26,667 nt of DNA from Psammoneis japonica (taxonomy: Eukaryota). A program made the position numbers and the translations under genes. The stretch's first letter is position 1, and the number at the start of each line of letters is the position of its first letter. The notes under the pieces are model-generated. The model saw only the letters and a list, made by a program, of their open reading frames with translations. It searched no databases and had not been told where the DNA came from. The stretch lies in the NCBI GenBank assembly GCA_008632985.1, contig QPGO01000174.1:124001-150667 (forward strand). Reading direction: 5' to 3'. This document shows, one piece after another, positions 1 through 26,667 of this stretch.

Positions 1-1097
1 CACACAAGGGCATCCAGTTGCGTCGGAGTAAAAGCAAAAAGGTCCTGATGCAAATCGGTTCCATCAATGTTGAGAGTGGAGCGCAATGGACTGTTCGCGG
101 CTTGGTTCAGAACAGTGCCTAGAATGTGCTCGAGGCCATCAATTTGTTGTTGCCTGGTGAGAACCTTGTTGCAACCAGGTGGATGTCGGAACTGGCTGGA
201 GTCGGAGGGTGAGCTTGAAACAACTTGAAACTTGACTTGAATCTTGACTTGATGTCTTGAGCTGTCTTGAGAGTCAGAAGCCGCCGGGCTGTGATGCCCC
301 ATTTGCAGTTGAGTGCCAAGCTTCCCATCTGGTCCGCAGAGTTGTGCCAGCACGTCTGAACCCACAGCTGGCGACACTTTGGGTTGCCTGAGAGCGGAGC
401 AATGGGTTAAAAACCCCTGCTGACAAGCCAGCCAGAGGTGGACAAGACCTCCAAACCGTTCTTGTTTTATGTCGGTTGGACAACCCGATCAGGCCGGCCA
501 AATTTGGCGCTGTGGAGGGATGAACAAACGTGGGAAATGCACCCTCACCCCAACACAGGCTGCGGTCATGAACTGCTTCCTCTCACAGTTGTCCTGGCAG
601 ACCTTGTGGGACTGCAGAAGACCAGCAATCCAGTGCAGACACAAGGCGGCAGACTTGGCATGTGCAGAGCAGGGCCAGAGTCAAGGGTTTGCATCGTGTG
701 CACGTGGACGCGAGCGGATGGACTGGCAGGATCCGCCACAAGGAATCCGGAATCTCAGACGTCTGAGAATTTGGGAATTCCTGGCCAAACAAATGTCCGT
801 TGAACAAACATGTCCAACGATGGGAGGTGTTGGACAAATCCAAACGTGTGGATTTGACCCAGCACCCAGCAGCGAAGAAGGTGGGCACGTGTGCTCCCAC
901 CACCAACGGCGCACATCGTCAAAAATTTCTTGATGATGACAATGAACGCTCAATGGACAACAAAGAGCAAGACTGTCAATCTGACAGAAAATGAAGATGA
1001 CTGGGTGGAAAAAAACAATGGCTCCTTGCTGCTGTCCAAATGGCAGATGAGTCTCCGTGCAGAGACCGCGGCAGGAACCGAAAGACTGGCGCCGTGA
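1..1097 (+). pseudogene. Degenerate coding remnant, unidentified, in a TpA-depleted block
   Basis: Protein-like stretches switch between + frames (438-803, 800-994, 891-1097) with scattered stops. HPHPNTGCGHELL loosely resembles the SGNH-hydrolase HP...GH block, which is not sufficient for a call. No TpA was found between 470 and 1519. Confidence 0.3.
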
Positions 1098-1314
1098 TGC
1101 CTGCACTGCTGTTGTCATTTTTGTGAGCCGAGTGGCTCAAAAGCAAACTGCATCACGTGACGCGCGCGGAACTGAGAGCACGCACAACCGTGTGTGACAA
1201 ACCAAAATCTTGCTCAAATCCTGCCAAGGCTTGGCACTTGATGCCTCGCCCTTGCGCTTGACCACGCTCATGCTCCCGGCGCCTGAGCGAGCGTGCGACC
1301 ACTGTCGCTGCTTT

Positions 1315-1640
1315 TGCACATTCTTCCATTCAACCCAACCGAAAAACAACAGCTGCAGCTCTTTGTGCACCCATGTCTTGATGGTCACAACACGCGAGCA
1401 AAATCTGCTGGCGCTTGTGGGTGTCCGGCCCGCGTGTGAAATTTTCAAAAAAATTCAGTCATCGGTCATCTTGGTTGTCCCTGCTTGCACCCAACCGAAA
1501 AATGACAGCTGCAGCTCTTTAACATGCATGTGTCTTCATGATCATAACACATGTGATTAAAACTTGCTGGCATGTGGATGTTGGCATGAAATTTTCAAAA
1601 AAATCCAGTCATCCTTTCGGTCATCTTGGTTGTCCCAGCT
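1315..1640 (+). repeat. Two diverged tandem copies (about 150-156 bp) of a dispersed repeat, with a third copy at 13936-14080
   Basis: CAACCGAAAAA..ACAGCTGCAGCTCTTT at 1336 and 1492. TGAAATTTTCAAAAAAAT(T/C)CAGTCATC...GGTCATCTTGGTTGTCC at about 1437 and 1587. Confidence 0.9.
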
Positions 1641-1891
1641 AGTTTTTCACGACCTCGCAAATGACTCTGGATGAATGAATGGCCCGACAGCTCTTTCGTA
1701 GCGCGAATCCGGGATGTGGACTTGCACAACTGTATCAACTGTGAAAGAGGACAGAGGATTCGCCGCTGTTAATACAAGCGAACAAACAGAAGAACAAAAG
1801 CACAGGGTCACACTGAAAGAATACACACGAACACGAAGTGATCAGAACAACCCATCAGGGAACAAAAGAACTGGATTCGTGAAAGCACCTG

Positions 1892-3787
1892 ATGACAGGA
1901 CGAGTAATTCGGAAGGCATTCGTGCCGTTGCTCTTCTTGGTGTACCTCTTCAGGACTTTGCATTCAGGGTTAAAGGATGTGTCTATCACCTCGCTGACAC
2001 ATTCGGTGCCGGACAAGTCTTCTTCCTTAAAAGACACCCCCCCTAAGTCTCATCCAAACCAAGAGCCTTTGTCACCCCCCATTCTAATTCAAACAGTGTC
2101 TGTGGATGCAGGAAATGTCACGCATCTTAGCATCGACCACAGATCTGGCGGCTGGGGAAACCGTGTATTTCAAGGCTTGCACGCTCTTGTGGTTCACAGA
2201 CCTGACTTGCCACCAGGACCCTGTCTTGGTGGAACCCAAGGGGCCATGTTTGGCAGCTTCCTCTGCAAGGTGGATTTGTGTCCAGAAAGCACCCCCAAAG
2301 AAAAATACACACACCTGGGTGGAGTGGCCAATCGTGATGCATGGGAGCGCATATTCCGAGAAGTATCGGCGCCCAATCCGAAAGTTCTCCCTTTCTTGGA
2401 GTTAGATCAAACTGCGGTACAAGAAGTCATCGGCACAGAGCTCATGGGAGAGCTTAATCGCACTTGCGCAGTTCACGTACGATTTGGGGACCATTATTTC
2501 CGAAGTGATAAACCCAGGTATGCTGGTGACTCAAGAATAGCAGCGTGTAAAGGCAAAACTGTACAACAGTGTTTTGGACACGTTGCCGATTGGGTGAAGA
2601 GAGCATGTTCATCTTCACATACGGTCTACGTGGCAAGCGACGTTCCAGAGTTCTCAGAATTCGTGGTGAAAGCGTCACCCGACCTGAAAGTCTTCCACGC
2701 CACTCAGGTCAGGACAAGTGTCCACATGAACGACATGGATTCATTTTCGCTCTCAGACCCGCACGCACGGGGTATAGTCATAGATTGGCTTGCGCTGGCG
2801 CTCTCTAAAGAACGACATGCTATATCCAGAAGCACGTTTTCAAGTTCAGCTGGCCTTGGTTTTTATCTCTCGAATTCGTCTTGCGAGAAAGGAGCAGAGA
2901 CATCCATTCTCCTGGGGGGAGCAGCTGCGGAGGTTGTGAAACGTGATGGAAGCTCGAACATTTGCCGCAGCAATCCCTATGTGAGCAAGCTTGAAGATTC
3001 TCTCGAGACAATCACAGAACGCATGGATGCCTGGTTGGAGCCGTTGGCTTATGAGAACACCATGATCCAAGCCAAGACCAATCCTCAATGGCGACGTAAT
3101 TGGGGCCCTTTCAATGCACATGCCGAAATGGCAAAATGTCATCCCGCCCATCGAAGATGTGTGGGAGGCCCCTGTTTTGACGATTTGAGTAAGATCACTT
3201 GTGGGTTGAGCGCCCTGGAACCTGGCTGTGTGGTGTATTCGATAGGTGGAAACAACCAGTGGCAGTTCGAACTAAGTGTCCTGGAAGACACGCCATGTGC
3301 TGTTCATACATTCGATTGCACGGGCCCCAAGCGACGGTTTGTTCCACCCAAACATGATCGTCTGCACTTCCATCATGTTTGCGTTGGAACTGAACATGAA
3401 CCACCCCCCACTGCTCCTTGTGAAGGCCAAGTGAAATGCGGAGCCACTTGGACACTGCGTGAGATGAAAGAGAATCTTGGACACGATCATGTCGATCTCT
3501 GGAAAATGGACATTGAGGGCTTTGAATGGGGCATCCTTGAATCATGGCCCGAGCTGGATGAGGAGCGTGGGGATGTTGCTTTGCCACAACAGTTGCTTGT
3601 GGAAATCCACTATGTCACCCAATTTCCAGCACTCTACAAGAACGGGTCCAGCAAGTTCAAGGATCCCGAGGACAGCGTGAAACTGCAGCGTCATCTGCTG
3701 CAGATGGGCTATGCGGTGGTTGAACGCGATGACAATGGGCGTTGCAAACACTGCACAGAGTTGACCTTGGTTCGTGTGAGATGCTGA
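1892..3787 (+). CDS. Type-II membrane protein, 631 aa: fucosyltransferase-like (GT11/GT23/NodZ-type) domain fused to a C-terminal Methyltransf_22/METTL24-like SAM methyltransferase
   Basis: Uninterrupted ORF with N-terminal signal anchor (RKAFVPLLFLVYLF). Fucosyltransferase-type motifs: GGWGNR, AVHVRFGD, VYVASD, IDWLAL...STFS. Methyltransferase motifs: CVVYSIGGNNQWQFE, VHTFDCT, VDLWKMDIEGFEW, QLLVEIH. Confidence 0.85.
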   Translation: MTGRVIRKAFVPLLFLVYLFRTLHSGLKDVSITSLTHSVPDKSSSLKDTPPKSHPNQEPLSPPILIQTVSVDAGNVTHLSIDHRSGGWGNRVFQGLHALVVHRPDLPPGPCLGGTQGAMFGSFLCKVDLCPESTPKEKYTHLGGVANRDAWERIFREVSAPNPKVLPFLELDQTAVQEVIGTELMGELNRTCAVHVRFGDHYFRSDKPRYAGDSRIAACKGKTVQQCFGHVADWVKRACSSSHTVYVASDVPEFSEFVVKASPDLKVFHATQVRTSVHMNDMDSFSLSDPHARGIVIDWLALALSKERHAISRSTFSSSAGLGFYLSNSSCEKGAETSILLGGAAAEVVKRDGSSNICRSNPYVSKLEDSLETITERMDAWLEPLAYENTMIQAKTNPQWRRNWGPFNAHAEMAKCHPAHRRCVGGPCFDDLSKITCGLSALEPGCVVYSIGGNNQWQFELSVLEDTPCAVHTFDCTGPKRRFVPPKHDRLHFHHVCVGTEHEPPPTAPCEGQVKCGATWTLREMKENLGHDHVDLWKMDIEGFEWGILESWPELDEERGDVALPQQLLVEIHYVTQFPALYKNGSSKFKDPEDSVKLQRHLLQMGYAVVERDDNGRCKHCTELTLVRVRC

Positions 3788-3888
3788 TTGCTGCAGAAAT
3801 TAACTCCTAAATGTAATACAGATGTCATCAGTCCTCCAATTCAACACATTCAAAATTTCTACTGCGTCGCCCATTTTCCTGCGCTCTG

Positions 3889-4043
3889 CAAGAATACACT
3901 CCCCTGATCAAAGCATCGGTTTTATCAAAGAAGAAAGAAGCACAAATGGTGCAAACAACAAACAACACAAGAATGCACTCCCCTGATCAAAGCATCGGTT
4001 TAATCAAAGAAGAAAGAAGCACAAATGGAGCAAACGACAAACA
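3889..4043 (+). repeat. 79-bp tandem duplication, 2 copies
   Basis: CAAGAAT(A/G)CACTCCCCTGATCAAAGCATCGGTTT...GAAGCACAAATGG at 3889 and 3968. Confidence 0.92.
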
Positions 4044-4094
4044 GTACTGTCAACAGAGGAAGACACATCCACACACAAAGCCATGCTACAGTCC

Positions 4095-4733
4095 GTGACT
4101 GGAAATTAGCAATGGACTCAATCTTTAATGGCATTATCAATGGAGTAGGTTATGGTTATATTTATCAATGGCACAACAAGTTGTCCTAAGTTGAACGTTA
4201 TGTTTTATCATTGCACAACAAGATGTCCTAAGTTGAACGCTGGTTTTGAAGTTCCATTGAACTGGAAATTAGCAATCATTAATGACAACATTGAAACTTC
4301 TCTTCACTTACACTGCCTCTGGACAGTACACAGCTTACTTTGTCCACCGTGACTATTCAATCTGCCACATTTTATAAGCCATACACTGTTCTACTTTTGC
4401 CTTAGCCCTGTGCACCCTAGTGACTGGAAATTAGCATTTGGTCTACTTTTGCCTGGACATTAGCAATGGACCCAATCATTGACGGCATTAGCAATGGAGC
4501 AGGTTATGTTTTAGCTTTGCAAAAAAAGTTGTCCTAAGTTGAACGTTGTATTTTTTTCTATTGAACTGGAAATTAGCAATTATTAATGACGACATGGCAC
4601 AGCAAGATGTCCTGAGTCGAACGCTGCTTTTTGAAATCTATAAGACGTGAAGTTAGCAATCATTAATGACAAGTTGGTTGAGCAGCTATAAGACGTGAAG
4701 TTAGCAATCATTAATGACAAGTTGGTTGAGCAG
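4095..4733 (+). repeat. Complex of diverged short repeats ending in an exact 48-bp tandem pair
   Basis: CTGGAAATTAGCA and TGTCCT(A/G)AGT(T/C)GAACG units recur. CTATAAGACGTGAAG...GGTTGAGCAG is identical at 4638-4685 and 4686-4733. Confidence 0.88.
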
Positions 4734-5667
4734 AGATCAATTTTCTGAGCAGCAAAAGAACATGTGATTCAGCGTGGTTCCCCGACTGTTCACCATTCTG
4801 GAAAATAGGAAAACAAAACGCATTTTTGACAGCATGAAGTGTCATGTTTAATGTTGTTTGACAGCTTTTTTTTTCTGCAACCACTAAGATGCAAAATTGA
4901 AGCAACTTTAAAATGGTGCAAAGTGCCAAATAACAAAATTAAATAAATACCAAAACTAGACTATGCTGTTCAAGCTTTTTTGACCTCTACAATTTTGACA
5001 GCGTGCACCTTCAAAACTCGGGGATACAGCATTGTCAATGAAGACGCGGCACAGTGCATTTTTAGCGCGGGGAAAAGAAAAGAGTTGCCTCAACGCACGG
5101 ATGTTGTGCACGAAAATTAGGTGTGAGCATATCAAAGCCAAAAACATGCGCATTAGAAACAAATCTTTGCAGCTTTCACAACATTCCACGCGCCATTGGT
5201 TTTTCTGGAGCTCCAAATAAAAGCATCTTCTTTAACCATTGAAATGACTATGAGTACATTTTGTATTTAATTTTGACTCTTTACGTGTTCAAAGCATGTA
5301 GTCATTATTAAAAGATATATTTCTGACATTATTAATTTCGTATTGAAGTACGTCCAAATTAAATGCGAAGCGACAGTGCTTAGTTTGGGCCGGTAGACAC
5401 ATCAGATGTAGATGCCGGATCATGTCACTGCTGTCGAACAGTAGTGTTAGGACCTAATTGATCCTACGGAATCGGAACAGAAGTTAAACATTATGGTCTA
5501 TCTATCGCCAGTTCGAGCCAACATTTAGGGGAATGAACAAGGAGGCTAGTGTCCACATCTTAAGTGATAAATAATCTGAGACGAATGTAGAGCAACAAAA
5601 GACAATAGCAAGCTATTACATCTTTACCCAGCAACAACGGCTCCCACAAACCACACCTCCAATACAC

Positions 5668-5897
5668 TCAACGAGGAATGCAACTGGTTAAATGAAATTG
5701 CACAAGAAGGAGGTTATCGCTATCTTTTGGAATGGTTACAAAGTATACACACCATGACAGCAAAGGATAATCATGTTCAAAATCAACGAGGAATGCAACT
5801 GGTTAAATGAAATTGCACAAGAAGGAGGTTATCGCTATCTTTTGGAATGGTTACAAAGTATACACACCATGACAGCAAAGGATAATCATGTTCAAAA
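5668..5897 (+). repeat. Exact 115-bp tandem duplication
   Basis: TCAACGAGGAATGC...ATCATGTTCAAAA at 5668-5782 and 5783-5897, with no mismatch seen. Confidence 0.93.
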
Positions 5898-6353
5898 GAA
5901 GTTGAAAAGCACATAACAGTTAGATTATAGTTTTCATTGAATACAAAAAATACACACGTTCGGGAGGAAACGGTTAAGTCATTCTGCGTGCCAACACAAC
6001 ACGCATTTGTTTGACAGCATGAAGTGATTCATTCCACGCGTCAAACAGATTGCTACACTCCGCACACCATATGGATTGGTTTTATCCTTGTGCCCAGCCG
6101 TGTCCCAGAGCCGGTAAAAAAAAATTTCAAAAGAGATATCTTTGAAAAAGATAGCGATTTCGTTGTGAAACATAACAAACGCCAGAAAAAGCCTGAGATG
6201 GACAACCAAGCAAAATAAAAAAACACGTTTTTAACAGCATTCAGTCATGACCAAGCAAGCATGAAGTCCTGTTGACAGAAGCACTGTTTCACTGTTTACC
6301 TTTTTTCCGTACCCACGCAGTTGCCACATTAACGCAAAAATTTAATTGAGTAA

Positions 6354-7124
6354 GAGCATCTTCGCCAGTGAGTCGTAAACATAAACATAAACATAGGAAC
6401 ATAACCTAAAAGGACAAGCGAACAGACTGCCCGTATAAGTTACGATCTGCACGCGACCATCATTTTCAGTCGATCACAATCGTATCCATACACGTATATC
6501 AATAACTAACTGATGGTAGGACGACTTGTTGAATTTTACATGACGCCATGCGGCTTTGAACGCAATATACGACACAAATCACCGTCTATTCAAAGATATG
6601 TCGACGTCTATCAATAGAGAATAATTCATATTATATGTCTATGTGTTACTATGTTGTGAAAGTCATTCTACATCGCGAAAACAAGCGAAATGTTATCACA
6701 CGATTTATGCCTTATTCTCTTCTGACCCCATAAACCCCCCATATGTCGGTTCTCCTCCCATATCTCGATGCGGCCGTATGTAAGTTCATAAGATACGACA
6801 AAGTCTTAATTGTTGGGCCTCTGTAAGGTCCTCTCATCAAGAAAGCGTCGATTGTCGTTTCGTCATGGTGACACGCACTTTCTACAGGATTTCTACACCC
6901 TTTTTGTACCAGAAATTTACGATTTTCGTTTACGATTTTGGAGGTGGATCGTATCCAAGGCCTGATTTGCGATTCACTTTCATGAATCGTAAATTCGAAA
7001 AGGGTTATTAGCGCAAAAAATATGTTTACGATCCACCGAAAATGATGATTTTTTGTGAATCTCATTCGTATCGGAAGACGTACGGACATAGGTTTATGTT
7101 TACGACTCACTGGCGAAGATGCTC
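6354..7124. mobile_element. PIF/Harbinger (Tourist-like) non-autonomous element (MITE), 771 bp
   Basis: Perfect 33-bp terminal inverted repeats GAGCATCTTCGCCAGTGAGTCGTAAACATAAAC (6354-6386 and 7092-7124), flanked by TAA target-site duplication (6351-6353, 7125-7127). Interior is AT-rich with no credible transposase. Confidence 0.9.
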
Positions 7125-9539
7125 TAAAATACCAAAAATAAATAACAAAAATTTTCTATTTAAAAAATTTTGGCGTTTTCGACCCCTTCAATTTTGACCA
7201 ATGGCATTGCAAGCCCTCGGACAGATTTTGAACCTGAGGTGTGGACAACCGCAAAGAGATATGTGGAAAACACATCCGAGTGTCTAATCTTAATGTCTAT
7301 TGGCCGAAATATGGCTCTGAGATTGTTCTATTGGCCGAAATATGTTGAACTAAGTCATTCTATATTGTCCCGCGGTGCGGAAAAAGTTACAGGGTGGCTC
7401 TGAGATTCTTCATTGTCCTGACTTAGACATTTCGGACATAATGTTGCTTCCCTTCCAGACTCCTGTTTTATTCGCTGTGGCATGAATCTCTCCTGCGTGT
7501 GGTCGTTCGGAGAGTGAAACAATTCAAATTAAATCAGTAAGTTCCCATAAACTGTTGATCTTGATTCCTCTTGTGGCTGTTTTCCAAGCTATAATTAACA
7601 TGCCTTGCTTGTTGACAATCATCACGCTAATTTGGTCAGTCACACCAGTTAAGAACCGAGTTATCCTGCTGTGATTTTCAACAATTCACTTACGGAAAAA
7701 GAATGTTTCGGGAGGGGAAACATGAGAAATTTTCGACCCCTGATAAAGCATCGCTCTTCATTTTTAAAGCATATTTGGAATAACGCCTTGGTGTTGCACA
7801 CTATGTCAAAGCAAGTTGTTGTTGTCTTTTGCATTGTCATAATTCTACGGCAGCTACCCACCAATAACACCTACGTGTGTTTCTACGTGCGCTCCCTTAC
7901 TGATGTCGCATTTCGCTGGGTCTCCCAAGACCATTCTGGCCATTTCAACCAATGTCACACCCTTATTTCAGCATGATAATCAATGTTTCTCGGTGAAAAA
8001 GACTGGCGTCGATTCCTTATGGTTCGTATGCTCGTTGATTTTTTTCGTATTGTTTCTGCAGACTCAAGAAATTTTCTACACGGATTCTAGTACAAATTCT
8101 ACGCGCGACAGCAACAACCACCGACGACTGCTGTATCAACGCTCCGAACTACTTACGCCCATACCCATCGGTCCTCAATAACCTTCTTTATCTCCATCTG
8201 CCAATCAAGTGCTTCACTCTATTTGGTGAAAGTACCTCCTCTGTTGCGGCGCTGACGATCCAGTATGGTTTCTACACGAGACAATTGTTTTTTCAGATTC
8301 ATATCTACAAGACCTGTGCTACCTTACTTCTATCTACTGGCTAATCAAGCTCACTACCCTGAGTGGTGATCTTACTGTTCTCGCTACGATTCCTCGAGGT
8401 GTGCAAATAAGATGCCTCATGATGTAACCAACGTGTGCATCACCAGCAAGACTGCAGAAAACTCCAAGTGTTGTGTTCTCTGTTTCAACTGTTTCCGTCG
8501 GGCGTCTCATTCTGGAGGCGCCGAATCCGGCTAATCGCATGGTAGGGTGTAATGAAAGTGTGGGTTAGCCGGCGTCGGTGTTGCTGGGCAAAAGCGTAAT
8601 AGCACTTAAAATTAGGTTTGGGTTTTTTGTCTTTTGCATTGTCATTTTTTGTTAATCACTAGATTGAGAATAGTGCTTCTTTAACATAAACTAGAGAGCA
8701 TCTGCTGAGCATCTTTGTGCTTCTTGTCTTAGCATCGTCTACCTCGACATCTCCCTCACTATGACTTACTTGTGATTTCGTACTGGAAAGTATGATTGTT
8801 GACGGGAAAAACACGTGCTTGTCGCTATGGCACACAAAGCGTTAAGTTCACTTGAAATTTACAAAAAAGTTTTTGTCCTTTAATTTGTGATGAAGAAATT
8901 CCCAATCAAACCTGACAATTCTATTTTGGACGGAAGAGAGGCCGAAAATAGTCTTTTTGTTTCTCTTCTCTTTTGCGCTGCCTTGAGTGACGTTTGTTTA
9001 TGTCAGGATATTTAGGAAACATGAGACCACAAACGGGTCCCTGCTGCTTGGAATCCCTCATTCTGAATTCTTTACACCATCATGCCCAGCATGTCCATTA
9101 TTTGCAGCTGCACCCCGTTCTTGTTGTATGTCGTTCCCATGACAAACATCTACATCATACAGTCATGATTGACATTTTACAGCATCATGCAGAAGTGAGC
9201 ACAATGCCATGCAAGAGAGTGAGTGGAGCCAATAACTTTGCAGGAACTCAGTTGAAATGTCATCTGAACAAAGGCGGGTTTACTACCTTCGTGAGTTAAA
9301 AACAAGCTTAGCGTGGAGTTCATCTCGTGTTCCCTTGGTGGCGAGGGCACTGGAAAGGGGAAAGTGATAGGGAATTGCTTGAATCTTGTTGTTCGGGGTA
9401 AGGCAATGACTGAAAAGGTCAAGTTGTTACAAGAATTTGTTGAAGGCTCAGTGTCGGCCAGCAACAGGAGCGGCAACATCGGGGGCTTTCTGAACTTTGA
9501 CAGAGACGTTCTTGACACCACCGAGTTTGACAGTTTCGA

Positions 9540-11057: not shown

Positions 11058-11069
11058 GGTTAAGAGAAC

Positions 11070-16040: not shown

Positions 16041-16515
16041 TTCATTGCATTTACGCCAGGCCTTTTGGGACTTTCCATCCATCGTAAAATAAACATGGAT
16101 GCGAACAAAATAGCCAAGCTGCCCTGTTGACAATGTCTTGAGCATGTAGTCACTGTAATTGTCTTTATTTTTAGCACTTGTATTGCCGTCTGCACTTATT
16201 GCACTCCTCCCTGCTTTACTGTTCGCATTCATCTCACTCCCATTGTCGGGGCCATTGCCATCTGACTTCTTTCCTCTTTCGATTATCGTGCCAAGCACTG
16301 CTTTCGGTTCCTCTTTGAAATTGTCCATGCAGCAAGTTTCTTATGCTAGAGCCTTGAACAATTGAGACAATTGCCCTCTGCCACTGTGTGCTCTCCCCCG
16401 ACCAGTTGGAGTGAGAAAAGTGGGTTCTGCCAAATGGATGCTTGTTCTGTCGTGAGGAAATTGAAAACTTTCCAGCTTCTTATTGTTGTCGAGCACTTGC
16501 TTGCCATGGATGCTG

Positions 16516-17601
16516 CTACACCAGGAGGCGCATTGCCTCGTCCGGACAGGTGAGCAGGGCCTTCCCCAATTCCCTCGTTCGGCCCTGGCAAGACGCCTTC
16601 TTCCTCGTGTTCAACGTCCACTCCAGCACATGCTGCTTCGCCTCCAGCCATTCATCGAGTGTCACCATGGTAGCGTTGCTGTTCATTGCCTCTGCCAGCC
16701 GCACCCACGTTGTCATCCTGGCCTTCTTCTTATTCAAGTGCTTCGCGTCCAGGTCCGGGCAGTGGTGCCTGGAGAGCAGCCCCTGGAGCCGGTCCACTTG
16801 TGTGTAATGTAGGAAGACGAGGTTTGGGAGGTTGTCCTTGACGGCCTTGTAGAGGTCGCACGTCAGTACCTCATGGTTTCCCCAACCGAGTTCTGACCTG
16901 CGGGGCACAATCACCCGCTTGACGAGGTTCGCCTCATCGACGACGCACTCCTGCGGCGAGCCATCCTCCGACGACTTCGTCGTAGGGGCGGACACGACGA
17001 CCAGGGGGTCGCGGCCATTCTCAAAGTTCTTGCAGTGCCGCGTTTCGACGACAAACCGGATCGCCGAGATGAGACGGTCCGTTTCGTGGCGGTACACGAA
17101 AACAACCAGTGAGCCGTCGGCGATTTTCGACATTGAGGAGGGCATGTGCTGCATCAGGTGGATCATAGGCTCGTCCAGCTTCACGTGCGATGCGACGACC
17201 CTCTGCGGTATGAGCGAATTCGTCAAGAACGCCATCCTGTCCCGGTCCTCTGCGACGACGTTTTTCACCTGCAGTTGCTGCGGAGGGTGACCCATGCACG
17301 ACTGCACGAAGTGCTTCAGCGTCGTCCCTGCCGCCTTGGACGGCATCGTAATGAACAGCTGCCCCCTCCTCGAGATGATCTCGTCCAACTCATCGTCGAT
17401 CGACAAGCACTGGTACAGTTGTTCGCTGCCCCGTCCTGCTCCCTGCTTTGCAACCCTCCTGCCACCAAAGCCGTCGTCCGTCGTCGACGAGAAATCCGAA
17501 TCTTAAAGAGCACCGCCGGGAGTGCTCCAGAGCCTCGCCGCGGACAAGACAACTATGACCAACATGGCGATGCGCACTCGCTTGTGTAGTCCCACCGCCA
17601 T
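16516..17601 (-). pseudogene. Sulfotransferase-like type-II membrane protein gene with one in-frame premature TAA (17505-17503)
   Basis: ATG at 17601 and a TM segment (IAMLVIVVLSAA) are in frame with ORF 17406-16516 across a single stop. FITMPSKAAGTTLKHF resembles the 5'-PSB loop, and VFVYRHETDRLISA resembles the 3'-PB motif of PAPS-dependent sulfotransferases. Confidence 0.7.
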
Positions 17602-18018
17602 TGTTCGTTGGTGGCGCTTGTCAATCTCCTTTCGGGTGGTTCCTTCGCTGCAAGCAACGTGTTTGTGTCGACATTTGACATTTGCCATGCACTGCTCTAG
17701 CTAGCAGCAGAGCACCAGCCACACGCCTTGCCTGCACGTACAGAATGTAAGTTTAATGCGGTCATTCAGCAGGTCACAAAAATGACTGGCCTCGTGTAAA
17801 GACCGACAAGGGAGATGACCTCATCACCAGTTGATGACGCAACTGAAAATCATTCCCCGCATCACCATCATTGGACGCGTTCAGTTGGCTTTTGGAAGCG
17901 AGCTGCTTTGCTCATTCTTCCAAAGAGTTTTAACAGCAAGCCAAATGGACAGTCTAAAGTGCCATCTTGTTCGGCGGAGGATGCCATCTGCCGCTGTGTG
18001 GGTGAACCTCGCAGGGCC

Positions 18019-18540
18019 ATGAGCCAGAGCGGAGCCACTGGAAGAGCCCCACAACAAGGAGCAGCACAAGCAGCACAATGACTGGGAGCCATTGGGAATC
18101 AACCCCTGGCACAAGCTGCCAATGATGCGCCAAACACTGGAGGTGCACAGCCCATGCCGCCGGCGCCAGCACACCCAGCTGCAGGCGCCGTGCCAGGAGT
18201 GGCGGCACAGCAGGGTGCGCCGCAATGAGCGCAGCCGCCCAGTGCACCACAACAGCTGGTGCCACCAGTTCATGCAATGGCCGCTGAGGACCCGTGCCAT
18301 GGGAGCCACACAGACATCATGCAAGATTTTGTGGTCCCGACACAGGGACAGTCGCGGCACAACCCAGGTGTGCTGAGAGACCACGTTGGAGCAGCGTTTG
18401 GGCATGACCTGCCTGTGGCACTCGTGTGGAAATGTGGGGCACAAGGTGGGAACAATGCTGGGGTCCTCGAAGTGTTTCACTGCACTGCACAATGCCCGCA
18501 TCAGAGGCCACAACACAGTGTTGTTCACTTTCCTTTGGAA
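18019..18540 (+). pseudogene. Degenerate Pro/Ala/Gln-rich ORF fragment, probably transposon-derived
   Basis: A single frame reads MSQSGATGRAPQQ...*...*...EDPCHGSHTDIMQDF...LPVALVW...LEVFH with two TGA stops, inside a TpA-depleted block. Family not identified. Confidence 0.35.
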
Positions 18541-18953
18541 AATTTGGACATTTGTTTTGACAATTGTGCACAAAAATTGGTGACAGCTCACTTGTTTTTT
18601 GACAGTCAATTTACATTTGTCATTGCCGTTTTATGTTGGCAATTGTTGCCATTTTATTTTGCTTTTAAGTTGCCAAAGAATTTCAATGAGCCCTTTGTTG
18701 TTGAATGGTGCTTTTTGTTTTGATCAATTTTTCACATGTTTGTGGAATCGTCAACTTTGACAGTGCTTTTCAATGGCTTCACCGCAGCCTTGCGTCACCA
18801 CAGACAATGGCATTTCTCCCTCGCCCCAGTCAGCCACGCAATTGCCCAGAGGAACACCATCTCATTGTTTCCACCTGCACGCTCCAGTTGTCCAGTCAAT
18901 GGGCCCCTGCCTGCATTTTGGTGCCTTTTCTACATGCGCAGTTCTCCACCCAT

Positions 18954-19012
18954 TTCACAACAGTGCACCCTCTCCCCAAAATGCTTTTGACGAGAGGGTG
19001 CACTGTTGTGAA
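18954..19012. other. Perfect 21-bp inverted repeat (hairpin)
   Basis: TTCACAACAGTGCACCCTCTC (18954-18974) is the exact reverse complement of 18992-19012. The spacer can pair further (CAAAA/TTTTG). Confidence 0.92.
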
Positions 19013-19052
19013 TCCTGTGCATTCTACGTGAATCGGCAACTGACTGTTGGCC

Positions 19053-22000
19053 ATGGCATCTGACGACTTTGCCCCGTCTGACGACGAGGTCGACCCTGAC
19101 CCTTCTTTCCAAATTACCGAGGACTTAAATTTTGATGAAATGGAGTGTTTCACCAACGGTTTTGGATTCGAATTGTTCCAACCCAAGCTCAAAAGCACAC
19201 TGCAACGCGTGCCTCGAAAAAGAAGTTTTTGGAGTCGACGAATTGGACCCCCTCTCCAGAATTCCTCGCTCTTCCCTTCCTTTGTCACAAGCCGAAGTTG
19301 CGCCGTGTTCCTCATGTTGCCGAAGTTATCCACACCAACAATGTTGCAAGGAAAACCCTTGGCTATCCCGACATTTGGCCCCACATCATGACTCGTGGTT
19401 GGTCCATTGAGAAATCCCGCCGTGCGAAAGGCGAACATGTCCTGCGACACAAAAATCTCGAGGAGGCTCTGCATTTCTCCAAAACATCCGGAGAGACAGA
19501 AAAAGAACAGCATGACCGCATGCTTCTTCACCGTAACATCCAGGTGATGGTGGAATTTGTTTGTGCGATCATCACCGGAGATGACCCAAATGATCCTTTA
19601 TCCGGCAAGCCTTGTTTCCGATTTTTGCGGTGCAAAAGTCTCCAAAGTTTGATCAACGATCAAGCCCAAGACCTCCACAGTGCCCATTTTGTCACTGACA
19701 TCGTCATGCGTTACGTTCAGTGCAAGCCCAAGGACATGGACTGTTGGTTTTTGAAGATTTTCCATCACGTCAAAACCCAAAAGGAATGGCGCCTCTTTGT
19801 TGATGGCTTTCTGGTTGTGTGTGACACTGACGATCCTGGTGCCCAGGCGGATGAGATCAAGGGGTTCCTTGACGACTCAACCGGCAACATGAAGAACACG
19901 GTGACAATGCAAGGCGATTCCCTTGCATGCCGTGAGGCTCATGAAGAAAAAATCAATTCCATGTTGAATCACGAATTTGGGAAGCGTTGTCCCAAGGAGC
20001 AAATTGGCATCCGACCTGGGCACAGCAAGCAGCTCACAATGCTCCATTGCAGAATGCGTGATCAGAGGGCCGGCTGCTTGGAAGATGACAATGAACAAAT
20101 CTACAACTCCAAAACCAAACGCAAAATTAGGAGGACCCGCAAGGATGGCACCTGTTTGTACGATGGCAAGAACCCCCCCCCACCTCCCGCCTTCTGCCTT
20201 TCCGCCTGCATCTGTCGTCTCAATGTCTCTTCTCACACCCCATGATTGTTCACGACCCACCAGAGCCTTCCTTGACCATTCCCAACAAGAAGGCCAAGCC
20301 TGCATCTCGCAATGAACAAGCCCCTCCATCGCTTTCTGGCAATGTTCCGTCGTCTGGGGAGGCGCGCCGGACTCTCACCACCGACCTTCCGTCACTCTCA
20401 GAAATTGTGGAAAACCCAAAACCTGCTTCTACCTCCAAAGGTCCTTCATCCAAACCTCATTCCTCTCCTCCTTCTGTTTCAGCCAATCCTCCTGCAGTTA
20501 CGTCTCCTCCTGGTGACCCTGACGACATGTCGTGGCTGGACCTGTCCACACTCCGCGATCGCTTTGACCCGTCTGAGTGTCGACCCGTCACCACCGAGGA
20601 AGTTTCTTCTCATTTGTCACACCTGCACATCATTGACAAAGCCACCGACACTGATCGGGTGCTTCATCATTCTGCCGCCGACTTTTGCCTGGCGGGTGAC
20701 TTGCGGGAAAACTGGCACACATTCTCAAACAATGCGCCATTGTGTGATTCCGCCACCGCATCTCGTGTTCGAACCGAGCACCCTCCTGACCTTGATCACT
20801 TCTCCAAGGAACTCTCCGTCGCCCATCAGGCTAACTCTCTGTACAAGGGGCACTTCGGGTGCCTTCGTGCATGCATTTCTGCCCTTCTTCTGTTTGTTTT
20901 GTTGAAGGGAGAGTCCGATTTGACACGTGACGGACCGGTTGCAGTTCAAAACGGCGAAGCACGCAGGATAAAGTTCGGTTGTGCTGGGAGAGCACATCAC
21001 CCCAAGACGCCTGGTTCTGCCAAACTGGCTAAACCAAAGGCCACTTACGGACTTGATGTCTTTGAGTCCAATGACAACTTTGACGCCAACAAGACCTCCA
21101 AAATCAAGGCGATGGCAGCCGACATCCTTGACTCGATTCAGCTTTGCGAAAATGAGGTAGAGCTGAAAAAACTGAGCAATCCACCACCATTTGACTGGTC
21201 ACTTCGGCACGAGGAATGCTCGCAAAAGTTGGGCAACGAAATGGGCTGTCTCTTCTTCAAACGTGAGGACGCCACTGTGCAGGGATTGTGCATTTCCGGG
21301 GTCAAGTCTGTGATGGTCACCATGACAATAAAAACTGCACCTGGCGTCGACATGGGAAGACAGCTGCCGGTTGCTTCTTCATTGTGGATGCCTTTGGCGA
21401 CATCTGGTCCTTCAAGGTTGTTGCCAACAGCAGAAGGACCATTGGTGAATGCCACGATGACCAGTGCGACATGAAGCCTGTGCTTGCTCGCATGCACCAC
21501 AATCGAGCTCAGCTTGATTTTGCACTTAAAGACTTGGACTTGCAGCATGATGGTCCCACCCACCCCGATGTGTCGCTTTCCAGCATTACATTCAAGCATC
21601 TTTCCCTTGACAACAACAGGCCGTGGGACAATGTTCTCATTGGTGGAGGTGGCGACTCTTCACATGTCGAGGTGTGCATGGATCGACTCAAGTTCCCGAC
21701 TTTCCCAGTCAGGGACTTCCACTTGTCTGCCCCAGTCACAGTGATCTGCCGTTTCAAGAACATTGTGTGCCGATCGGGTCCCGACCCAAAACGAGTCATT
21801 CGTTTGGCAATCCATGCTGGTTGTCCCACCGGATGTCACCGATTTTACTGCATGGGGGACAAGTGTCTTCCCAACCTTTGTTGCAAAGGTGCTGACCCGT
21901 TTGTCAACTTTGCCGATTGCTTGCAGAACACATTTGGGGTGCCATGCGGTGACCCACAGGTGGGTGGGATCAGCCCCACCAATTTGACGTACGAGAAATT

Positions 22001-23069
22001 TTGCGATGCATTTCTAGACCCTTGTTGCGTCGGAACCGCGAATGACCTAATTGACGCAATGGTGGAAGAAATCTGTGCTGCACTTCTCTGGATAAACAAC
22101 AACGTCAACACCAACGAGTTCTGTCCCAACTTAATGGAACAACGGTGCAAGGCAGCGTGTGATGCTTGGGCAGACCGGGGAGCAGATTTCAGTGAGATTC
22201 ATCTCATGTTGGTGCTGCAATGTCTGGTGCTGGCAGGTGTCGCAGTGAAAGACCATCCAAGACTCAATGACATCATCTGTCCTGTCTTCAATTCGGGAGC
22301 TGCCGCACAACTGGGGCATGTTCAACCGGAAGAAAGGCCGCTCATGCACCAAAGGATGTCATCTGAAACAGGAACCGAAGAGCACGGTTGGAACGGAACC
22401 GAGCACAAACTTTGTGAGAATTCAGACAATTGCTGCACCTGTGTTTTTGATCATGTTTTCCAAGGACCCTGTTCAGGACAAGACCTGTTTACCTTCTCTC
22501 CCTCTGGGCAGTGTCTCCGCAAGCCATGTGGGTCAACCGAGTGTGAAATTTTGGAGTGTGTTGACGACGACCCCAACCTTTGCCAATCACAAGACAATGC
22601 TGAATCGCACACATTTGTGTGTGAATCAGCCGTGCAATCAGATGGTGCCAGTGTTTTCTCTGCTGTTGATGGACTGCCCGCGTACAATGAACTTAGCTCA
22701 TTGTCATCGGAGGAGTCTAGACTCACCGCAAACAATGAACTTAGCTCATTGTCTTCGGAGGATTGTCAATTTGACGCGGAGAAAGAACTAAGTTCATTGG
22801 ATTCGGAGGAGTCTCGACTCGCCGCAGACAATGAACTCAGCTCATTGTCTTTGGAGGAGTCTGTGTTGTCGGAGGACTGCTCGTGTCCTGATTCTGACTG
22901 CCGCGTTCCAATTGTCATGGTAGATTCTGTTGTCCTTCAGTCGCAGGATCAAGAATCCGATGAAGATGACACAAGCAATGCAACCGCGTGCGATCGACCC
23001 GAGCCACCGGTCCTTTTACAAGCACAAGATTTTGACATGGACAAACATGTGAATGCCATTTTTGAGTGA
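19053..23069 (+). pseudogene. Long frameshifted cargo ORF with unknown N-terminal domain, Pro/Ser linker, HxDxxN-containing domain, helical domain ending ExxLCE, and acidic tail
   Basis: ccATGg at 19053 (MASDDFAPS...). The protein-like reading passes through ORFs 19145-20245, 20242-21474 and 21288-23069, with apparent frameshifts near 19210, 20180-20240 and 21300. Cys/His-rich and Tyr-poor. Confidence 0.6.
22686..22862 (+). repeat. 48-bp coding tandem repeat, about 3.7 units (NELSSLSSEESRLTAN-like)
   Basis: Units start at 22686, 22734, 22782 and 22830. Confidence 0.92.
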
Positions 23070-24016
23070 GTCCATCAACAGCCGAAGAACTCCCACAATT
23101 GTTTGGTGTCATGTTTTTCACAAATCTCAACCCGCAACATGACTCCTCCTGTGCTTTTGTTTCACATTGTCATGTCATCCCCAGACAAGATGGAGGTGCA
23201 AATGTCCTGTGGCTTTGCATGACGAGGCCCGTCATGGCCGGAAACCTGACATTAGATGAGATGTGTTCAGACCGTGGCGTGGAAGCTGTCCGATCCACTC
23301 AGCAAAGAAGAGATGAGGCAAGGTGTCAAGTCGTTCAGGATCTCCACACGAACTCAAATGTTCGTGCATGCACTGTGTCCCTGCAGGATGGCAGCCCCGC
23401 TTGTCACTTGAGTTGCAACATGTCCGCCAAGAATTTTGCCCAAAGGGTCAAGACGCGGTTTGGAACAGTGATTGATTTTAAGAAAAGTGGCTTTGTTCAG
23501 ATCTGCATGGACTGCTGCTGGATGCAAAAAGGGGAGTGGCTGCAGTCGACACTCGGAAATCGCTTCTTTGGCGAAAACCTGAGGGATGTGATGGAAACGT
23601 TGTTTCATCCAAAGCTCCAGAGGTGCCGCATCATAATCCCGTGCACCATTTGGTCACTGACCCAAACCGTGCACAACTTGGATGACATTTTGGAGTGCGC
23701 ACTGGTGCAGGCCATGACACAGGACATGGCACATGAAACAGTGACGCTCCACCAGGCTTCCCAGGAGATCATGGAGGAGCACCGTGTGGATTGGCTGGGA
23801 AAACCATCTGCCCAGGAAGCATTGCATTTGGGAGTCACGGAACAGGAAATTCGGGAAACGCTGCCACATGAAGAAGCTGATTCAGTCCCAGAGTTCCTGC
23901 GAGAGTGTGGAAATTACAACCCGAAGGAACCATTCCCGTTCCTGTCCTTTGACAGGAGAATTCCTGATTTTGGGGATGAGTTAAGGAAATGGCCTGGGAG
24001 TTGTTTGCTGTGCTAG
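23066..24016 (+). pseudogene. Decayed cargo ORF, 316 codons, possibly the frameshifted C-terminus of the upstream ORF; possible Rossmann/methyltransferase-like fold
   Basis: Open frame ending in TAG, with alternating strand/helix pattern VLWLCM...RDEARC...CTVS...HLSCN...FVQICMDCCW...IIIP. Only one Tyr in 316 aa. Confidence 0.5.
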
Positions 24017-24130
24017 TTCCCAGTCGGATTTGTGAGTGGATTGTCAAAGTGGGTGAGTGAACGTTGTCTCTGTTGTCCTTGTCGTCCCAATTGAGTTTTC
24101 TGCTGCTGTTGTCGGATGCTCACATGCTTT

Positions 24131-26667
24131 TCACCTGCTTTTGTGAAACAGCTCTCCCCATGTGTTTCTGCGGTCTTGAACTGCCCAAACATGCTTTGTC
24201 CTGTCGTGTGTCTCAGCAATGCCGGGTTGCTCCTCATGCACCAACAATTTGTCACCAACAGCGTCGATGGGCACCAAGAAAAGCTTGGGTGAGCACACTG
24301 TTTGTTCAGTGGAGGACAAGTTGTTGTTCTTCACTTGGTCCAATTTCCAGCAACTGACCAGGTCGGTGTGTTGCATTCGTTCAACCATGGCACGCTTGTT
24401 GGGCTGGCACGTGCAAGGGTGAACGACCGCGTGCAAGTCACCGTGGCTTTCCCTTTGGAAGAAACAGTGAAGTCTTGATGGGAAGCACAATTCCCCCCCA
24501 GTTGTGCCAAAGTTAACATTCACCCAGTCGTGAACCGGTCCTTCGCTGTTGCAGTCTGGGTGTGCGCGGCAAGTGTCTTTCCCGTTCTTGTGGCGGAATT
24601 CGGTTTTGCAAACAAGGTTGACGGTGAGGTTGCCTCCTGCTCCAACGCATTCCCTCCACTTCTTTTGAAAGAAATGGAGCAGGACCGGGTGAACCTGACA
24701 TTGTTTTTGCTTTCCGTGCCAGAGAAAGCTCACTGCATTGTTTGTCGCACTGCAGGTGATGGCAAAGGTGCTGCCACCCAGTGTGTGACTGTCGTTGCCA
24801 CGTGTGACGTCCTTTCGTCCAACTCTCGATGTGATCCATGGGTTGGCCGACAACGCACGGTGCACCTTCATTTGGTCTTGCATGCGCGACGCAACCTGAC
24901 CCAGGAAGATGTCAAAGCTGCGTTGTTGTGCCGTGGCAGAGGGCAATTTGAAAAAATCCTCAAGCAAAGATTCTCCAAGACCAGCGTCAAAGTTCATGGC
25001 ATGACGGAAATGACATAGAAAGATTGGAAGGTGAAGAAGCTCGTGAAGTTTTTGCAGCTTCCACCCAGCCCCTTCGTGTCTGGGGAGCATGTACGACGAG
25101 ACACCAGCAACCAAATTTTCTTTGTGATTTTGGTCAGGTCAGTTGTGTTGGTCGGTGGGTCGCCGAGTCGACACCAAGCATGGAAGGTGAGCAGGTCTTC
25201 CAGCAACTGGAGCATGTGCCTGACACTGCAACTGAAGGGGCTTTCTCTTTTTTTTCCTTTTCCGTTGATTGTGGCTGTTGCCTTCATCCTCGGACTCGTC
25301 CGGTTGTTGTTCCACATGATCGTCTTCATCCGTTTTGTACGGATCATCTGTTCCATCATTGGAATGATGATTGTTGCCATTGTCGCACTCTTCCGGCATG
25401 TGACAGCGATTGATTCGGAACCCAGGCATCCCACGCCCTGACGGCAATGGAGGATTGTCTTGGTCTTCCTGGAGAAAACAAGATTCGCAGACATCTCTGC
25501 CTTCCTTTGTCAGCAGCAACAAACAAAAAACAAAGGCCACCCCCGCCCAATGATGTGAGTTGAGGTGGGTGAGTGATGTTGCCCCGCCCTTGAAATTGGT
25601 TCGTAAGAAAGAATTGCACGTGGATCGGTGATTGCCAAACATTTTTTCCACTGATCTGTCGACCTCGCTTCTCACTGAGTTTGTCATGCTGTCGACAAAA
25701 ACACCAACCTCCCTTTTTAAAGTTCCATTTTCAAAAAGGTGCTTCATGTCGCTTGCCGTGGAAAGGGTTGCTCCAAATGGCTGTTCTCTGAAATCTGCAC
25801 CTGAGCAAGCTGTTGGTGGGCACATTGTGCTGCTTCATGCAATGAAGCTGCTGTGGCCAGTGGTTCCTTTCTTGCTCGTCAAGACTGAGATCATTTGCGT
25901 GGTTCTGGACTGACAAAATGTCACCAGCCCTGACTGGTTCGCACTCCTTCCAAGGGTCGTCAAGCTCATTGCATCCGGTCATGCAAAACCTGGAACAACG
26001 TTGGTGACAGTTCTTGGCACCACACCTGCCCACAAGGCAGTCACCACTCTTCGCATCTCCGTTGATTAGGATCATTGTTGGAATGACATGAAGGAAACGT
26101 GTCTCATCACCGTGTCGAACGCAGCAGCGAAAGCCACCGTTTTCCATCATGTCCAGCAGAGGCTGGAGCATTGTTGCTAACACCTTGTGACAATCCCGGA
26201 TGCTTTGGCCCCTCTCCGACTTTCGAGCGTTGGATTGCTGTTTGGCGGTGGAGGAGGACATTTTTTCTAGGTCGGGAATGTAGCCAAGGACACGCCACTT
26301 TGCTCTGTCATGCCATTGGTTGCAGGCAATGTGAGCCGACGCAACTGTGATGGGTTCTCCGCAGGAAGACGACATGGAGGCTGTCTTCCCAGTCTTGTCA
26401 ATGTAAATTGTCAAACATTCGAGGAACTCTTTAAGAGGATCCGAGACCCTGGCTGCGTGCACACTTCTGTGCCACTCTCCTGCCAAAACACACTTGTCAT
26501 GCTTTCCCTTTGAGACACACATTCCACATGGATCGGCAGTGTCAGCAAGATCACTGGGGTTGGCCCATGTGCAAGCATCCAGCATGAACGATTCCCACAC
26601 ATCTTTGAAATTCCATCGCGGAACTCTCACTGTTGTCTCGCCGCGTTCCCATTGACGCTTTCTAGGT
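24131..26667 (-). pseudogene. Plavaka-type transposase pseudogene with at least 3 frameshifts; 5' end outside the window
   Basis: Motifs in expected order across ORFs 26630-25731, 25825-25139, 25494-24994 and 25114-24131: IYIDKT, GEP, WRVLGYIPDL, INGDAKSGD, SRFC, DMKHLFENG, RTNFKGG, LLTFHAW, PRHEGAGWKLQKLHELLH, NFDAGLGE, RAHPD...DWV. Confidence 0.8.

Follow-up and report, generated by a model that had tools for sequence, protein, structure and literature searches.

Regional TpA depletion in a multi-copy transposon and two non-genic blocks of a probable diatom genome: evidence for TpA-directed hypermutation

Results and Discussion

The 26,667-nt stretch of DNA analyzed in this study (hereafter, the window) contains at least 12.2 kb that have very probably passed through a DNA-level hypermutation converting the dinucleotide TpA to TpG or CpA, on either strand and near completion. 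Affected are two non-genic blocks and a multi-copy DNA transposon that carries two large pseudogenes (gene A and gene B), while the host genes located between them keep their TpA. By its dinucleotide pattern, the signature of the window is the same as that of the TpA-restricted hypermutation described for viruses integrated in the genome of Bigelowiella natans (Mettrop et al., bioRxiv 10.64898/2026.01.13.699255).

Extent and composition of the TpA-depleted DNA

No TpA was found at positions 470–1519, where 56 were expected from base composition (observed/expected ratio, o/e, 0.00), and the regions 14041–15900 and 23041–25140 contained 5 versus 106 expected (o/e 0.05) and 9 versus 127 expected (o/e 0.07), respectively. 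The corresponding values were 21 versus 41 (o/e 0.51) for 1921–2580 and 476 versus 778 (o/e 0.61) for 4100–13900. In the three depleted regions, taken in order of position, o/e amounted to 0.75, 0.47, and 0.60 for CpG, to 1.89, 1.60, and 1.57 for TG, and to 1.36, 1.60, and 1.55 for CA. Four TpA counts made by hand for a preliminary description of this DNA proved exact on recount, and its observation that CpG persists in the depleted blocks was confirmed, since both CpG-rich strings quoted there were found (at 1159 and 24882). The depletion is, however, wider than the regions named in that description: in 300-nt sliding windows, the TpA o/e was mostly ≤~0.25 across 1–1500, 14100–15900, and nearly all of 17850–26667. 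The edges of the blocks are sharp (near 1520, 14029, 15900, and 17810). Applying cut-offs taken from the B. natans preprint, 15 of the 27 one-kb windows showed Rho_TpA ≤ 0.43, and 9 of the 27 additionally showed Rho_CpA+TpG ≥ 1.52.

The longest TpA-free runs measured 1052, 657, 502, 500, and 488 nt, compared to a mean of 111 nt and a maximum of 208 nt for the longest run in 200 mononucleotide shuffles of the window. Poisson probabilities calculated at the TpA-normal level of the window (o/e 0.60) were 3e-15 for 470–1519, 2e-21 for 14041–15900, 2e-22 for 23041–25140, and 2e-68 for 17850–26667. A chance origin of the TpA-free runs is excluded.

To compare composition, 12,210 bp of depleted blocks were set against 10,229 bp of normal DNA (3800–14028). 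The TpA o/e was 0.10 in the depleted and 0.60 in the normal set, and the share of TpA among all dinucleotides decreased from 4.80% in normal to 0.59% in depleted DNA, corresponding to 48 TpA per kb in normal DNA versus 3–7 in the depleted blocks. Conversely, TG and CA each increased from 7.65% to 9.57%, so that their summed gain of approximately 3.8 points compares with a TpA loss of 4.2 points (per kb, 97–105 TG and 89–103 CA in the three blocks as opposed to 76 and 77 in normal DNA). The CpG frequency was the same in both sets (4.19% depleted, 4.04% normal). The o/e values of AT, AA, AC, AG, GA, and CC were nearly equal as well, and so was that of the dinucleotide GC, the raw frequency of which was higher in the depleted set, being the GC-richer one (GC content of 51% versus 43.5%).

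This shift has consequences for the coding potential of the affected DNA. Counted on both strands, the triplets TAA, TAG, and TGA occurred 61, 36, and 512 times in the depleted set and 302, 196, and 408 times in the normal one, and the near-loss of TAA and TAG leaves every one of the six frames open in the blocks. A conversion of TpA to TpG or CpA is unable to create in-frame stops and deletes TAA and TAG, while Tyr codons are turned into Cys or His and Ile codons into Met, Val, or Thr; targets stay open, yet they encode crippled proteins. For genome annotation this means that erased DNA with almost no TAA or TAG yields long false open reading frames (ORFs) in six frames, giving Cys- and His-rich, Tyr-free 'proteins' that match no family.

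The few surviving TpA were not evenly distributed over sequence contexts. Within ATA/TAT, 12 were left in the depleted blocks versus 264 in 3800–14028, namely 0 versus 60 in ATAT, 0 versus 63 in ATAC/GTAT, 3 versus 56 in ATAG/CTAT, and 9 versus 85 in ATAA/TTAT. The best-surviving contexts, relative to their density in normal DNA, were CTAG (0.31), GTAC (0.25), and TTAA (0.21). These values, which are based on small numbers and on the AT-rich spacer as the reference, suggest an additional preference for a T located 3' of the A or, equivalently, an A located 5' of the T, and hence a wider target motif.

Content of the depleted blocks

Three depleted blocks were delimited (Table 1). Block C, the mobile element, contains 62 TpA versus 527 expected, with just two TpA within 17811–18612. 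Its copy number was assessed from the word depth of exact-word (31-mer) contigs of the public run X1, matched at ≥80% likeness over 6668–26667. Summed word depth reached 1066–3605 over 18674–26667 versus 59 in single-copy DNA, summed contig depth being a rough proxy for copy number that reflects the present-day state. In total, 3204 contigs of run X1 were matched (593, 705, 991, and 915 in the individual likeness classes), and their differences from the window comprised 945 transitions and 276 transversions (1221 rows). Block C represents a diverged family numbering some tens of copies. The TpA drop near 17810 coincides with the onset of multi-copy depth, and a variant at 17809 was present in seven contigs. 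Neither terminal repeats nor a CACTA-type end were found at the left edge of the element, and its right end lies beyond the window.

The element carries genes A and B in convergent orientation, both being large pseudogenes. Gene A is read in frames 2, 1, and 3, with at least two frameshifts (near 20185–20260 and at 21297) and a Tyr content of 0.3–1.1%. Its family comprises 96 relatives (P0059–P0154), some of them up to 1956 aa long, and no Pfam domain was detected in it, including a Pfam run on 37 family members. A scan of viral contigs for relatives returned 24 pattern matches, none of which was confirmed. Gene A also features four 48-nt tandem units in its C-terminal part (22631–22858), which encode an acidic, serine-rich peptide (NELSSLSSEES-like); this part is without counterpart in the relatives.

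Gene B is read in frames −2 and −3, with a frameshift near 25791–25795 and one in-frame stop. Its intact relative P0155 (1283 aa) was matched with E-values of 3e-46 and 2e-47. In the Atlas feature search, gene B was assigned to Plavaka with a value of 0.97 (211 of 256 features, 25 of 30 matches) and a recognition of 1817, which is below 2300. Searches against the Pfam family PF18759 gave no Plavaka row at E ≤ 1 for three ORF pieces, nor at E ≤ 0.1 for P0155. The designation 'Plavaka-like' follows from the Atlas feature search, and membership of Plavaka (CACTA superfamily) is not claimed. A word-indexed protein search recovered one relative each for genes A and B, as opposed to 96 found by HMMER for gene A. 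Proteins translated from hypermutated DNA have few exact words in common with related sequences.

Block A includes a 1052-nt TpA-free run (468–1520) and contains 2.6 TA (normal DNA: 48), 105 TG, and 89 CA per kb; Pfam searches on its seven ORFs at E ≤ 1 gave chance-level rows only. Block B, with 3.2 TA, 97 TG, and 103 CA per kb, likewise had no Pfam match. A 4760-nt contig of run X1 with a word depth of 59.2 covers 11090–15849 with seven differing letters, while summed word depth in the bins over 14672–16005 was 73–123. According to the preliminary description, the depleted blocks coincide with decayed transposons and pseudogenes. This view fits 17.8–26.7 kb; for 1–1520 and 14029–15900, the search revealed no homology.

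Direction of change in the two pseudogenes

The direction of the substitutions was deduced from the two transposon genes. The ORF at 21267–23069 of gene A (P0057) encodes 0.5% Tyr and 7.0% Cys. A full HMMER search with it returned the 96 relatives, the closest being P0059 with 52% identity, and Tyr accounted for 2.1–6.0% in 61 of the 64 relatives of at least 200 aa. Alignment by tblastn with P0059, the closest intact homologue, showed that 23 aligned Tyr are represented in gene A by 3 Tyr, 11 Cys, 6 His, and 3 Phe, with neither Cys-to-Tyr nor His-to-Tyr changes in the reverse direction. With P0060, 26 Tyr correspond to 2 Tyr, 8 Cys, 9 His, 4 Phe, and 3 other residues, with a single reverse change (His to Tyr), and in gene B, 31 Tyr of P0155 correspond to 1 Tyr, 4 Cys, 8 His, 10 Phe, and 8 others, with no reverse change. 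Tyr was thus replaced by Cys or His at 17 of 23, 17 of 26, and 12 of 31 sites, respectively. At the replaced Tyr sites, every Cys codon is TGY and every His codon is CAY. Ile was replaced mainly by Val and Met, as predicted for changes of NNT|ATN to GTN and of ATA to ATG. Furthermore, Cys (A to G on the coding strand) and His (T to C) replacements are interleaved along each gene, indicating that both strands were affected.

These observations agree with the preliminary description, which had proposed a polarized, regional process acting on the DNA of both strands: Tyr turned into TGY or CAY with zero to one reverse changes, and the TpA loss was matched by the gain in TG and CA. The relatives are not equally TpA-free. 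In addition to the Tyr contents given above, a related DNA locus with 37% identity (L001, one locus out of 182 pattern matches in a metagenome scan with a four-sequence alignment) had a normal TpA o/e of 0.57. Judging from these relatives, a low content of Tyr and TpA is not a trait of the gene A family.

Three relatives of gene A with 24–32% identity (P0109, P0112, and P0124) were found to contain 0.0–1.1% Tyr and to be rich in Cys and His, with Cys or His at positions where their close paralogues have Tyr; therefore, other TpA-erased family members exist in public data. Runs of same-strand changes were also observed among the polarized Tyr sites, e.g., seven consecutive Cys at 21675–22278, which hint at patches of same-strand events but are too few for inference.

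An inherited composition, derived from a TpA-avoiding donor or from selection against TpA/UpA in RNA and requiring no hypermutation, was considered exceedingly unlikely. TpA is under-represented in most genomes, and even the normal part of the window has an o/e of 0.60, which would favor such an origin. However, conserved Tyr residues of two protein families have become Cys or His only in this copy, whereas the relatives are normal in Tyr and TpA. Selection is unable to purge a functional gene of its Tyr codons, and neither spacers nor pseudogenes would be subject to it. Moreover, other copies of the element in run X1 still have TA at no fewer than four of the listed sites at which the window has TG or CA.

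Fixation of RNA editing by retro-copying was judged to be similarly far-fetched. It would involve A-to-I editing of the ADAR/ADAT type with a preference for a 5' U, followed by reverse transcription into DNA, and this preference of A-to-I editors does fit TpA (10.64898/2026.01.13.699255). However, no domain of a reverse transcriptase or any other retroelement was found in any ORF: Pfam searches of 42 ORF translations (12 + 30 ORFs) detected no reverse transcriptase, integrase, or gag domain and returned two methyltransferase genes plus chance-level rows only, and gene B is DNA-transposase-like. In addition, both strands were changed within single genes, non-genic single-copy DNA was erased too, and the edges of the blocks are unrelated to transcription units.

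Copy differences and support from run X1

Of the 1221 differences between X1 contigs and the window, 40 were listed, and 29 of these rows, representing 26 events, are located inside the element (18384–26552). At least 12 of the 26 listed events are CG versus TG or CA, which is the commonest class, the window having TG or CA in 11 of them. At least five are TA versus TG or CA (TG or CA in the window in four cases, TA in one), at least three are TG-versus-CA double differences, and at least six are of other kinds. As the copies vary in their TA/TG/CA sites, at least some of the erasure postdates their separation. Alongside the erasure, the element appears to undergo CpG decay, for which methylation is the presumed cause. 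The CpG frequency equals that of normal DNA, but CpG is not untouched, CG versus TG or CA being the commonest listed copy difference.

The same contigs bear on the question of whether the TpA-free state is present in the reads, a check proposed in the preliminary description. Contigs of run X1 reproduce the depleted block B together with its normal flanks, a second contig matching 15824–17915 with one difference. None of the six listed letter differences (of seven) in the contig covering 11090–15849 restores TpA inside the block. A technical artefact, in which base-calling or polishing systematically renders modified TpA as TG or CA although the DNA still contains TpA, is very unlikely. Some long-read base-callers do produce systematic miscalls at modified motifs, and neither the assembly nor the runs have a recorded platform, which leaves room for such an error. 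However, over both of these ranges the assembly is matched by the contigs at depth 59, the pseudogenes also contain frameshifts and an in-frame stop, and the copies differ among themselves at the affected sites. On the same contig, TpA is retained in host genes at a distance of a few hundred bases, and the Tyr-poor, Cys- and His-rich proteins P0109, P0112, and P0124 occur in public data.

Targeting and chemistry of the TpA loss

The preliminary description had placed the process in silenced or duplicated DNA. Duplication as the trigger is not supported, as block B (14029–15849) lies on a contig of single-copy depth, while multi-copy repeats at 6.7–10.7 kb keep their TpA. The latter, being short repeats, suggest that repetition alone is not the trigger. 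An enzyme would be targeted by the cell to chromatin that is silent or foreign, rather than to repeats as such. Adenine would most likely be deaminated to hypoxanthine, which is then copied as G, by a polynucleotide deaminase requiring a 5' T, and ordinary decay of 5-methyl-CpG (5mCpG) would proceed in parallel on the same element. The tRNA deaminases TadA and ADAT2 act on A34, which is always preceded by U33.

Several points weigh against this explanation. Adenine deamination and thymine modification give the same sequence signature. Polarity was derived from protein homologues at 31–52% identity rather than from nucleotide alignments of copies, and the direction was seen in two transposon genes only; for blocks 1–1520 and 14029–15900, the erasure was deduced from composition. 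The contrast between erased and normal DNA was drawn within this window alone. Moreover, the 12 of 26 listed copy differences of the type CG versus TG or CA imply that part of the TG/CA excess results from CpG decay, and the three TG-versus-CA double differences are compatible with either CG or TA as the ancestral state. Finally, run X1 possibly represents the assembly data of the window itself and, in that case, offers no independent proof against a systematic read error.

The alternative that thymine is attacked is unlikely, but represents the main rival chemistry. A dioxygenase of the TET/JBP type would oxidize T at TpA to 5-hydroxymethyluracil (5hmU) or 5-formyluracil, and ionized 5-formyluracil would pair with G, resulting in T-to-C changes. 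Since TpA is its own reverse complement, A-to-G and T-to-C changes are inseparable by sequence, and the palindromic target would give TpA to CpA on one strand and TpG on the other. Both base J and the hydroxymethyluracil of dinoflagellates favor T residues that precede an A, although no report on dinoflagellate hydroxymethyluracil at TpA was retrieved in a literature search. According to PMC7051996, 5-formyluracil in DNA causes mainly A:T-to-G:C changes via mispairing with G and is removed by the HhH-GPD glycosylase AlkA, and this mutagenicity speaks in favor of the thymine route.

The predicted fold of gene A provides a further, albeit uncertain, argument. A model of its conserved domain, built from P0061 and 37 aligned relatives, reached a predicted local distance difference test score of 91.3. 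Among 48,161 solved chains, the top match was the phage 5-phosphomethyl-deoxyuridine glycinyltransferase (8z2m_A; Z 7.2, root-mean-square deviation 4.2, 215 residues), a weak match, followed by the likewise weak matches to HhH-GPD glycosylases (AGOG with Z 6.4 to 5.2, Mag1 4.2, AlkA 3.9, and NTHL1 3.5). In the viral fold library (BFVD), the top match of the gene A family was an amino-acid:DNA transferase (AADT), again weak with E 0.35, and the Atlas feature search placed ADDT (amino-acid:DNA transferase family) first with 0.76, a value in the range reached by shuffled proteins. Foldseek of the P0061 model against the PDB found nothing at E ≤ 0.001, and profile searches of Pfam and PDB sequences gave no sequence link for the fold. 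Three separate look-ups thus give the same top family, each match being weak, and their agreement may be regarded as a lead only. Provided that the fold match holds, the element would encode an enzyme from a class acting on modified thymine or damaged DNA bases.

The top fold matches of gene A would accordingly place enzymes of the thymine-modification type at the locus, which may favor the thymine route. However, these matches are individually weak (Z < 8, E > 0.1, and 0.76) and lack a sequence-level link, and no dioxygenase was seen in the window. We know of no strong mutagenic effect of 5hmU when it pairs with A, which also counts against this route. The sole measured case, that of B. natans, has an ADAT2 candidate and no thymine oxidase candidate.

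A more far-reaching and rather speculative idea is that the TpA signature is the scar of an enzymatic thymine modification, with transposon and host contesting the modified base. If true, the product of gene A would hypermodify oxidized thymine in the DNA of the element, or else excise it or hypoxanthine, and an arms race over DNA base modification would take place in a eukaryotic alga. To our knowledge, the element would then be the first eukaryotic mobile element with an enzyme of the amino-acid:DNA-transferase or glycosylase type. A literature search for eukaryotic aGPT-Pplase/AADT returned, by title and abstract, reports from phages and prokaryotes only.

Comparison with known systems

The preliminary description, made from the letters of the DNA, knew of no described system of this kind. 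However, the B. natans preprint (10.64898/2026.01.13.699255) measured the same signature de novo. Mettrop and colleagues reported that, in mutation-accumulation lines, 231 of 302 nuclear point mutations were located in integrated nucleocytoplasmic large DNA virus (NCLDV) and virophage sequences; 230 of these 231 were A-to-G or T-to-C changes, and all 230 fell on TpA, giving TpG or CpA. The rate amounted to approximately 6e-7 per site per generation, i.e., about 1000 times the background, in some lines only. The B. natans genome was also reported to contain TpA-poor, CpA+TpG-rich clusters, with 324 TpA-poor coding sequences (CDS) enriched in DDE and reverse-transcriptase domains, and the authors named an adenine deaminase of the ADAT2 type as their candidate (10.64898/2026.01.13.699255).

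As in B. natans, the changes in the window are A:T to G:C at TpA only, produce TpG or CpA depending on the strand, and are confined to blocks, one of which is a multi-copy, transposon-like element, and the window blocks pass the Rho cut-offs of that preprint. The two cases differ in the organism, B. natans being a chlorarachniophyte (Rhizaria) and the source of the window probably a diatom (Stramenopila), and in the target, which is viral in the former, whereas a Plavaka-like DNA transposon is the shown target in the latter. Furthermore, TpA accounts for 3.3% in the active NCLDV region and for 0.18% in a CDS subgroup of B. natans, compared to 0.3–0.7% of dinucleotides in the window blocks. Mutation was followed in real time in B. 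natans, whereas here it is read from sequence alone. No further report of TpA-specific hypermutation was found in the literature searched, and none for diatoms; searches pairing diatoms with TpA, repeat-induced point mutation (RIP), hypermutation, or Plavaka retrieved nothing on the subject.

Fungal RIP resembles the process proposed here in acting at the DNA level, regionally, by dinucleotide-specific transitions on both strands, leaving ruined transposons and diverging copies. However, RIP changes C to T mostly at CpA, raises TpA and AT, and makes stop codons, whereas in the window A:T is converted to G:C at TpA, GC is increased (51% versus 43.5%), and stop codons are removed. RIP is also triggered by duplication, which is unsupported as a trigger here. 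Decay of 5mCpG has the same end products, TpG and CpA, and apparently affects the same element, but it removes CpG and not TpA, and CpG is as frequent in the blocks as in normal DNA. The earlier judgment that neither RIP nor 5mCpG decay explains the loss of TpA is hence upheld by a TpA o/e of 0.10, the higher GC content, and the unchanged CpG frequency. Hyper-editing by ADAR and fungal mRNA editing by ADAT2/3 share the A-to-G change after a preceding U or T, but their substrate is RNA, whereas the window is genomic DNA affected on both strands, including non-genic single-copy DNA, and without a retroelement. Finally, APOBEC3/AID represent enzyme-driven, context-specific hypermutation against selfish DNA as well; they act, however, on C (C to U, i.e., G to A) in TC and CC contexts of single-stranded DNA and lower GC, so that base and direction are opposite to those observed here.

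The window would accordingly represent a second lineage for TpA hypermutation, distant from B. natans, with a new target class (a DNA transposon) and near saturation. A second occurrence would show that the process is not peculiar to one strain, and TpA-directed DNA editing may be an old defense common to the Stramenopila–Alveolata–Rhizaria (SAR) supergroup. Two affected lineages would also permit a comparative search for the enzyme among genes common to affected organisms and missing in unaffected relatives. For base-editing research, a natural enzyme changing A:T to G:C at one defined dinucleotide of double-stranded genomic DNA would be of interest.

Host genes, spacer, and other features of the window

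The features of the window are compiled in Table 1. Searches for tRNA genes and Rfam families in the window were negative.

Table 1. Position and characteristics of the TpA-erased blocks, transposon genes, host genes, and spacer in the 26,667-nt window.
Feature	Position	Strand	Remarks
Block A, TpA-erased	1..1520	.	without recognizable gene or repeat
Host gene, intact, 631 aa, Methyltransf_22/FkbM-type C-terminal domain	1892..3787	+	Pfam PF13383, E 9e-15
AT-rich spacer, tandem and dispersed short repeats, normal TpA	3800..10700	.	repeat families D2–D9; TpA o/e 0.4–1.0
Host ORF, 645 aa, Methyltransf_22/21 and weak DUF6492	11070..13007	-	Tyr 4.6%, 31 TAN codons
Host ORF, 302 aa	12925..13833	-	Tyr 3.5%, 12 TAN codons
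Block B, TpA-erased, single copy or nearly	14029..15900	.	without recognizable gene
TpA-bearing island between blocks B and C	15901..17810	-	host ORF 16516–17502, 328 aa, GC ~60%
Block C, TpA-erased multi-copy mobile element	17811..26667	.	continues past the right end of the window
Gene A, pseudogene, cargo gene of unnamed family	19205..24016	+	tblastn with P0059, P0060, P0061
Gene B, pseudogene, Plavaka-like transposase candidate	24146..26667 (cut by window end)	-	homologue P0155

For the intact methyltransferase gene, 56 homologues were found, and all four of the named ones are from diatoms (Amphora twice, Ditylum, and Epithemia), with 28–59% identity. The window is eukaryotic nuclear DNA, and its probable assignment to a diatom is based on this one gene. 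B. natans, a species with intron-rich genes, is an unlikely source, given these diatom relatives and the long ORFs of the window, which are free of interruptions. The gene keeps the invariant residues Tyr363, Tyr449, and Tyr607 and has a TpA o/e of 0.3–0.6. Its 3' end (3300–3787) contains 4 TpA versus 17 expected at the normal level (P 2e-4), and three of the four TpA left are part of Tyr codons. This deficit may be due either to a spill-over of the erasure, filtered by selection, or to codon usage.

The AT-rich spacer had summed word depths of 1138, 1252, and 1222 in three of the six bins between 6668 and 10669, versus 59 in single-copy DNA. Nested short repeats with units of 42–80 nt and normal TpA are located at 3889–4733 and 5668–5897, and the spacer also features a perfect 115-nt tandem duplication 3' of the first methyltransferase gene. 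Across 11.3–14.7 kb, word depth was flat at the single-copy value of 59. The island between blocks B and C contains 14 TpA per 300 nt at 15901–16350 and was likewise of single-copy depth (57–60).

A second run of the same sample, X2, covered 16192–17504 at a depth of 165. Its contigs were located only on the genic stretches 10993–13826 and 16192–17504 and none on the erased blocks, where missing cover proves nothing. This pattern is what a transcriptome would give, the kind of run being a guess. The genes at 1892–3787 (plus strand) and 11070–13007 (minus strand) are paralogues of approximately 640 aa, whereas their public relatives are mostly half as long (~350–400 aa).

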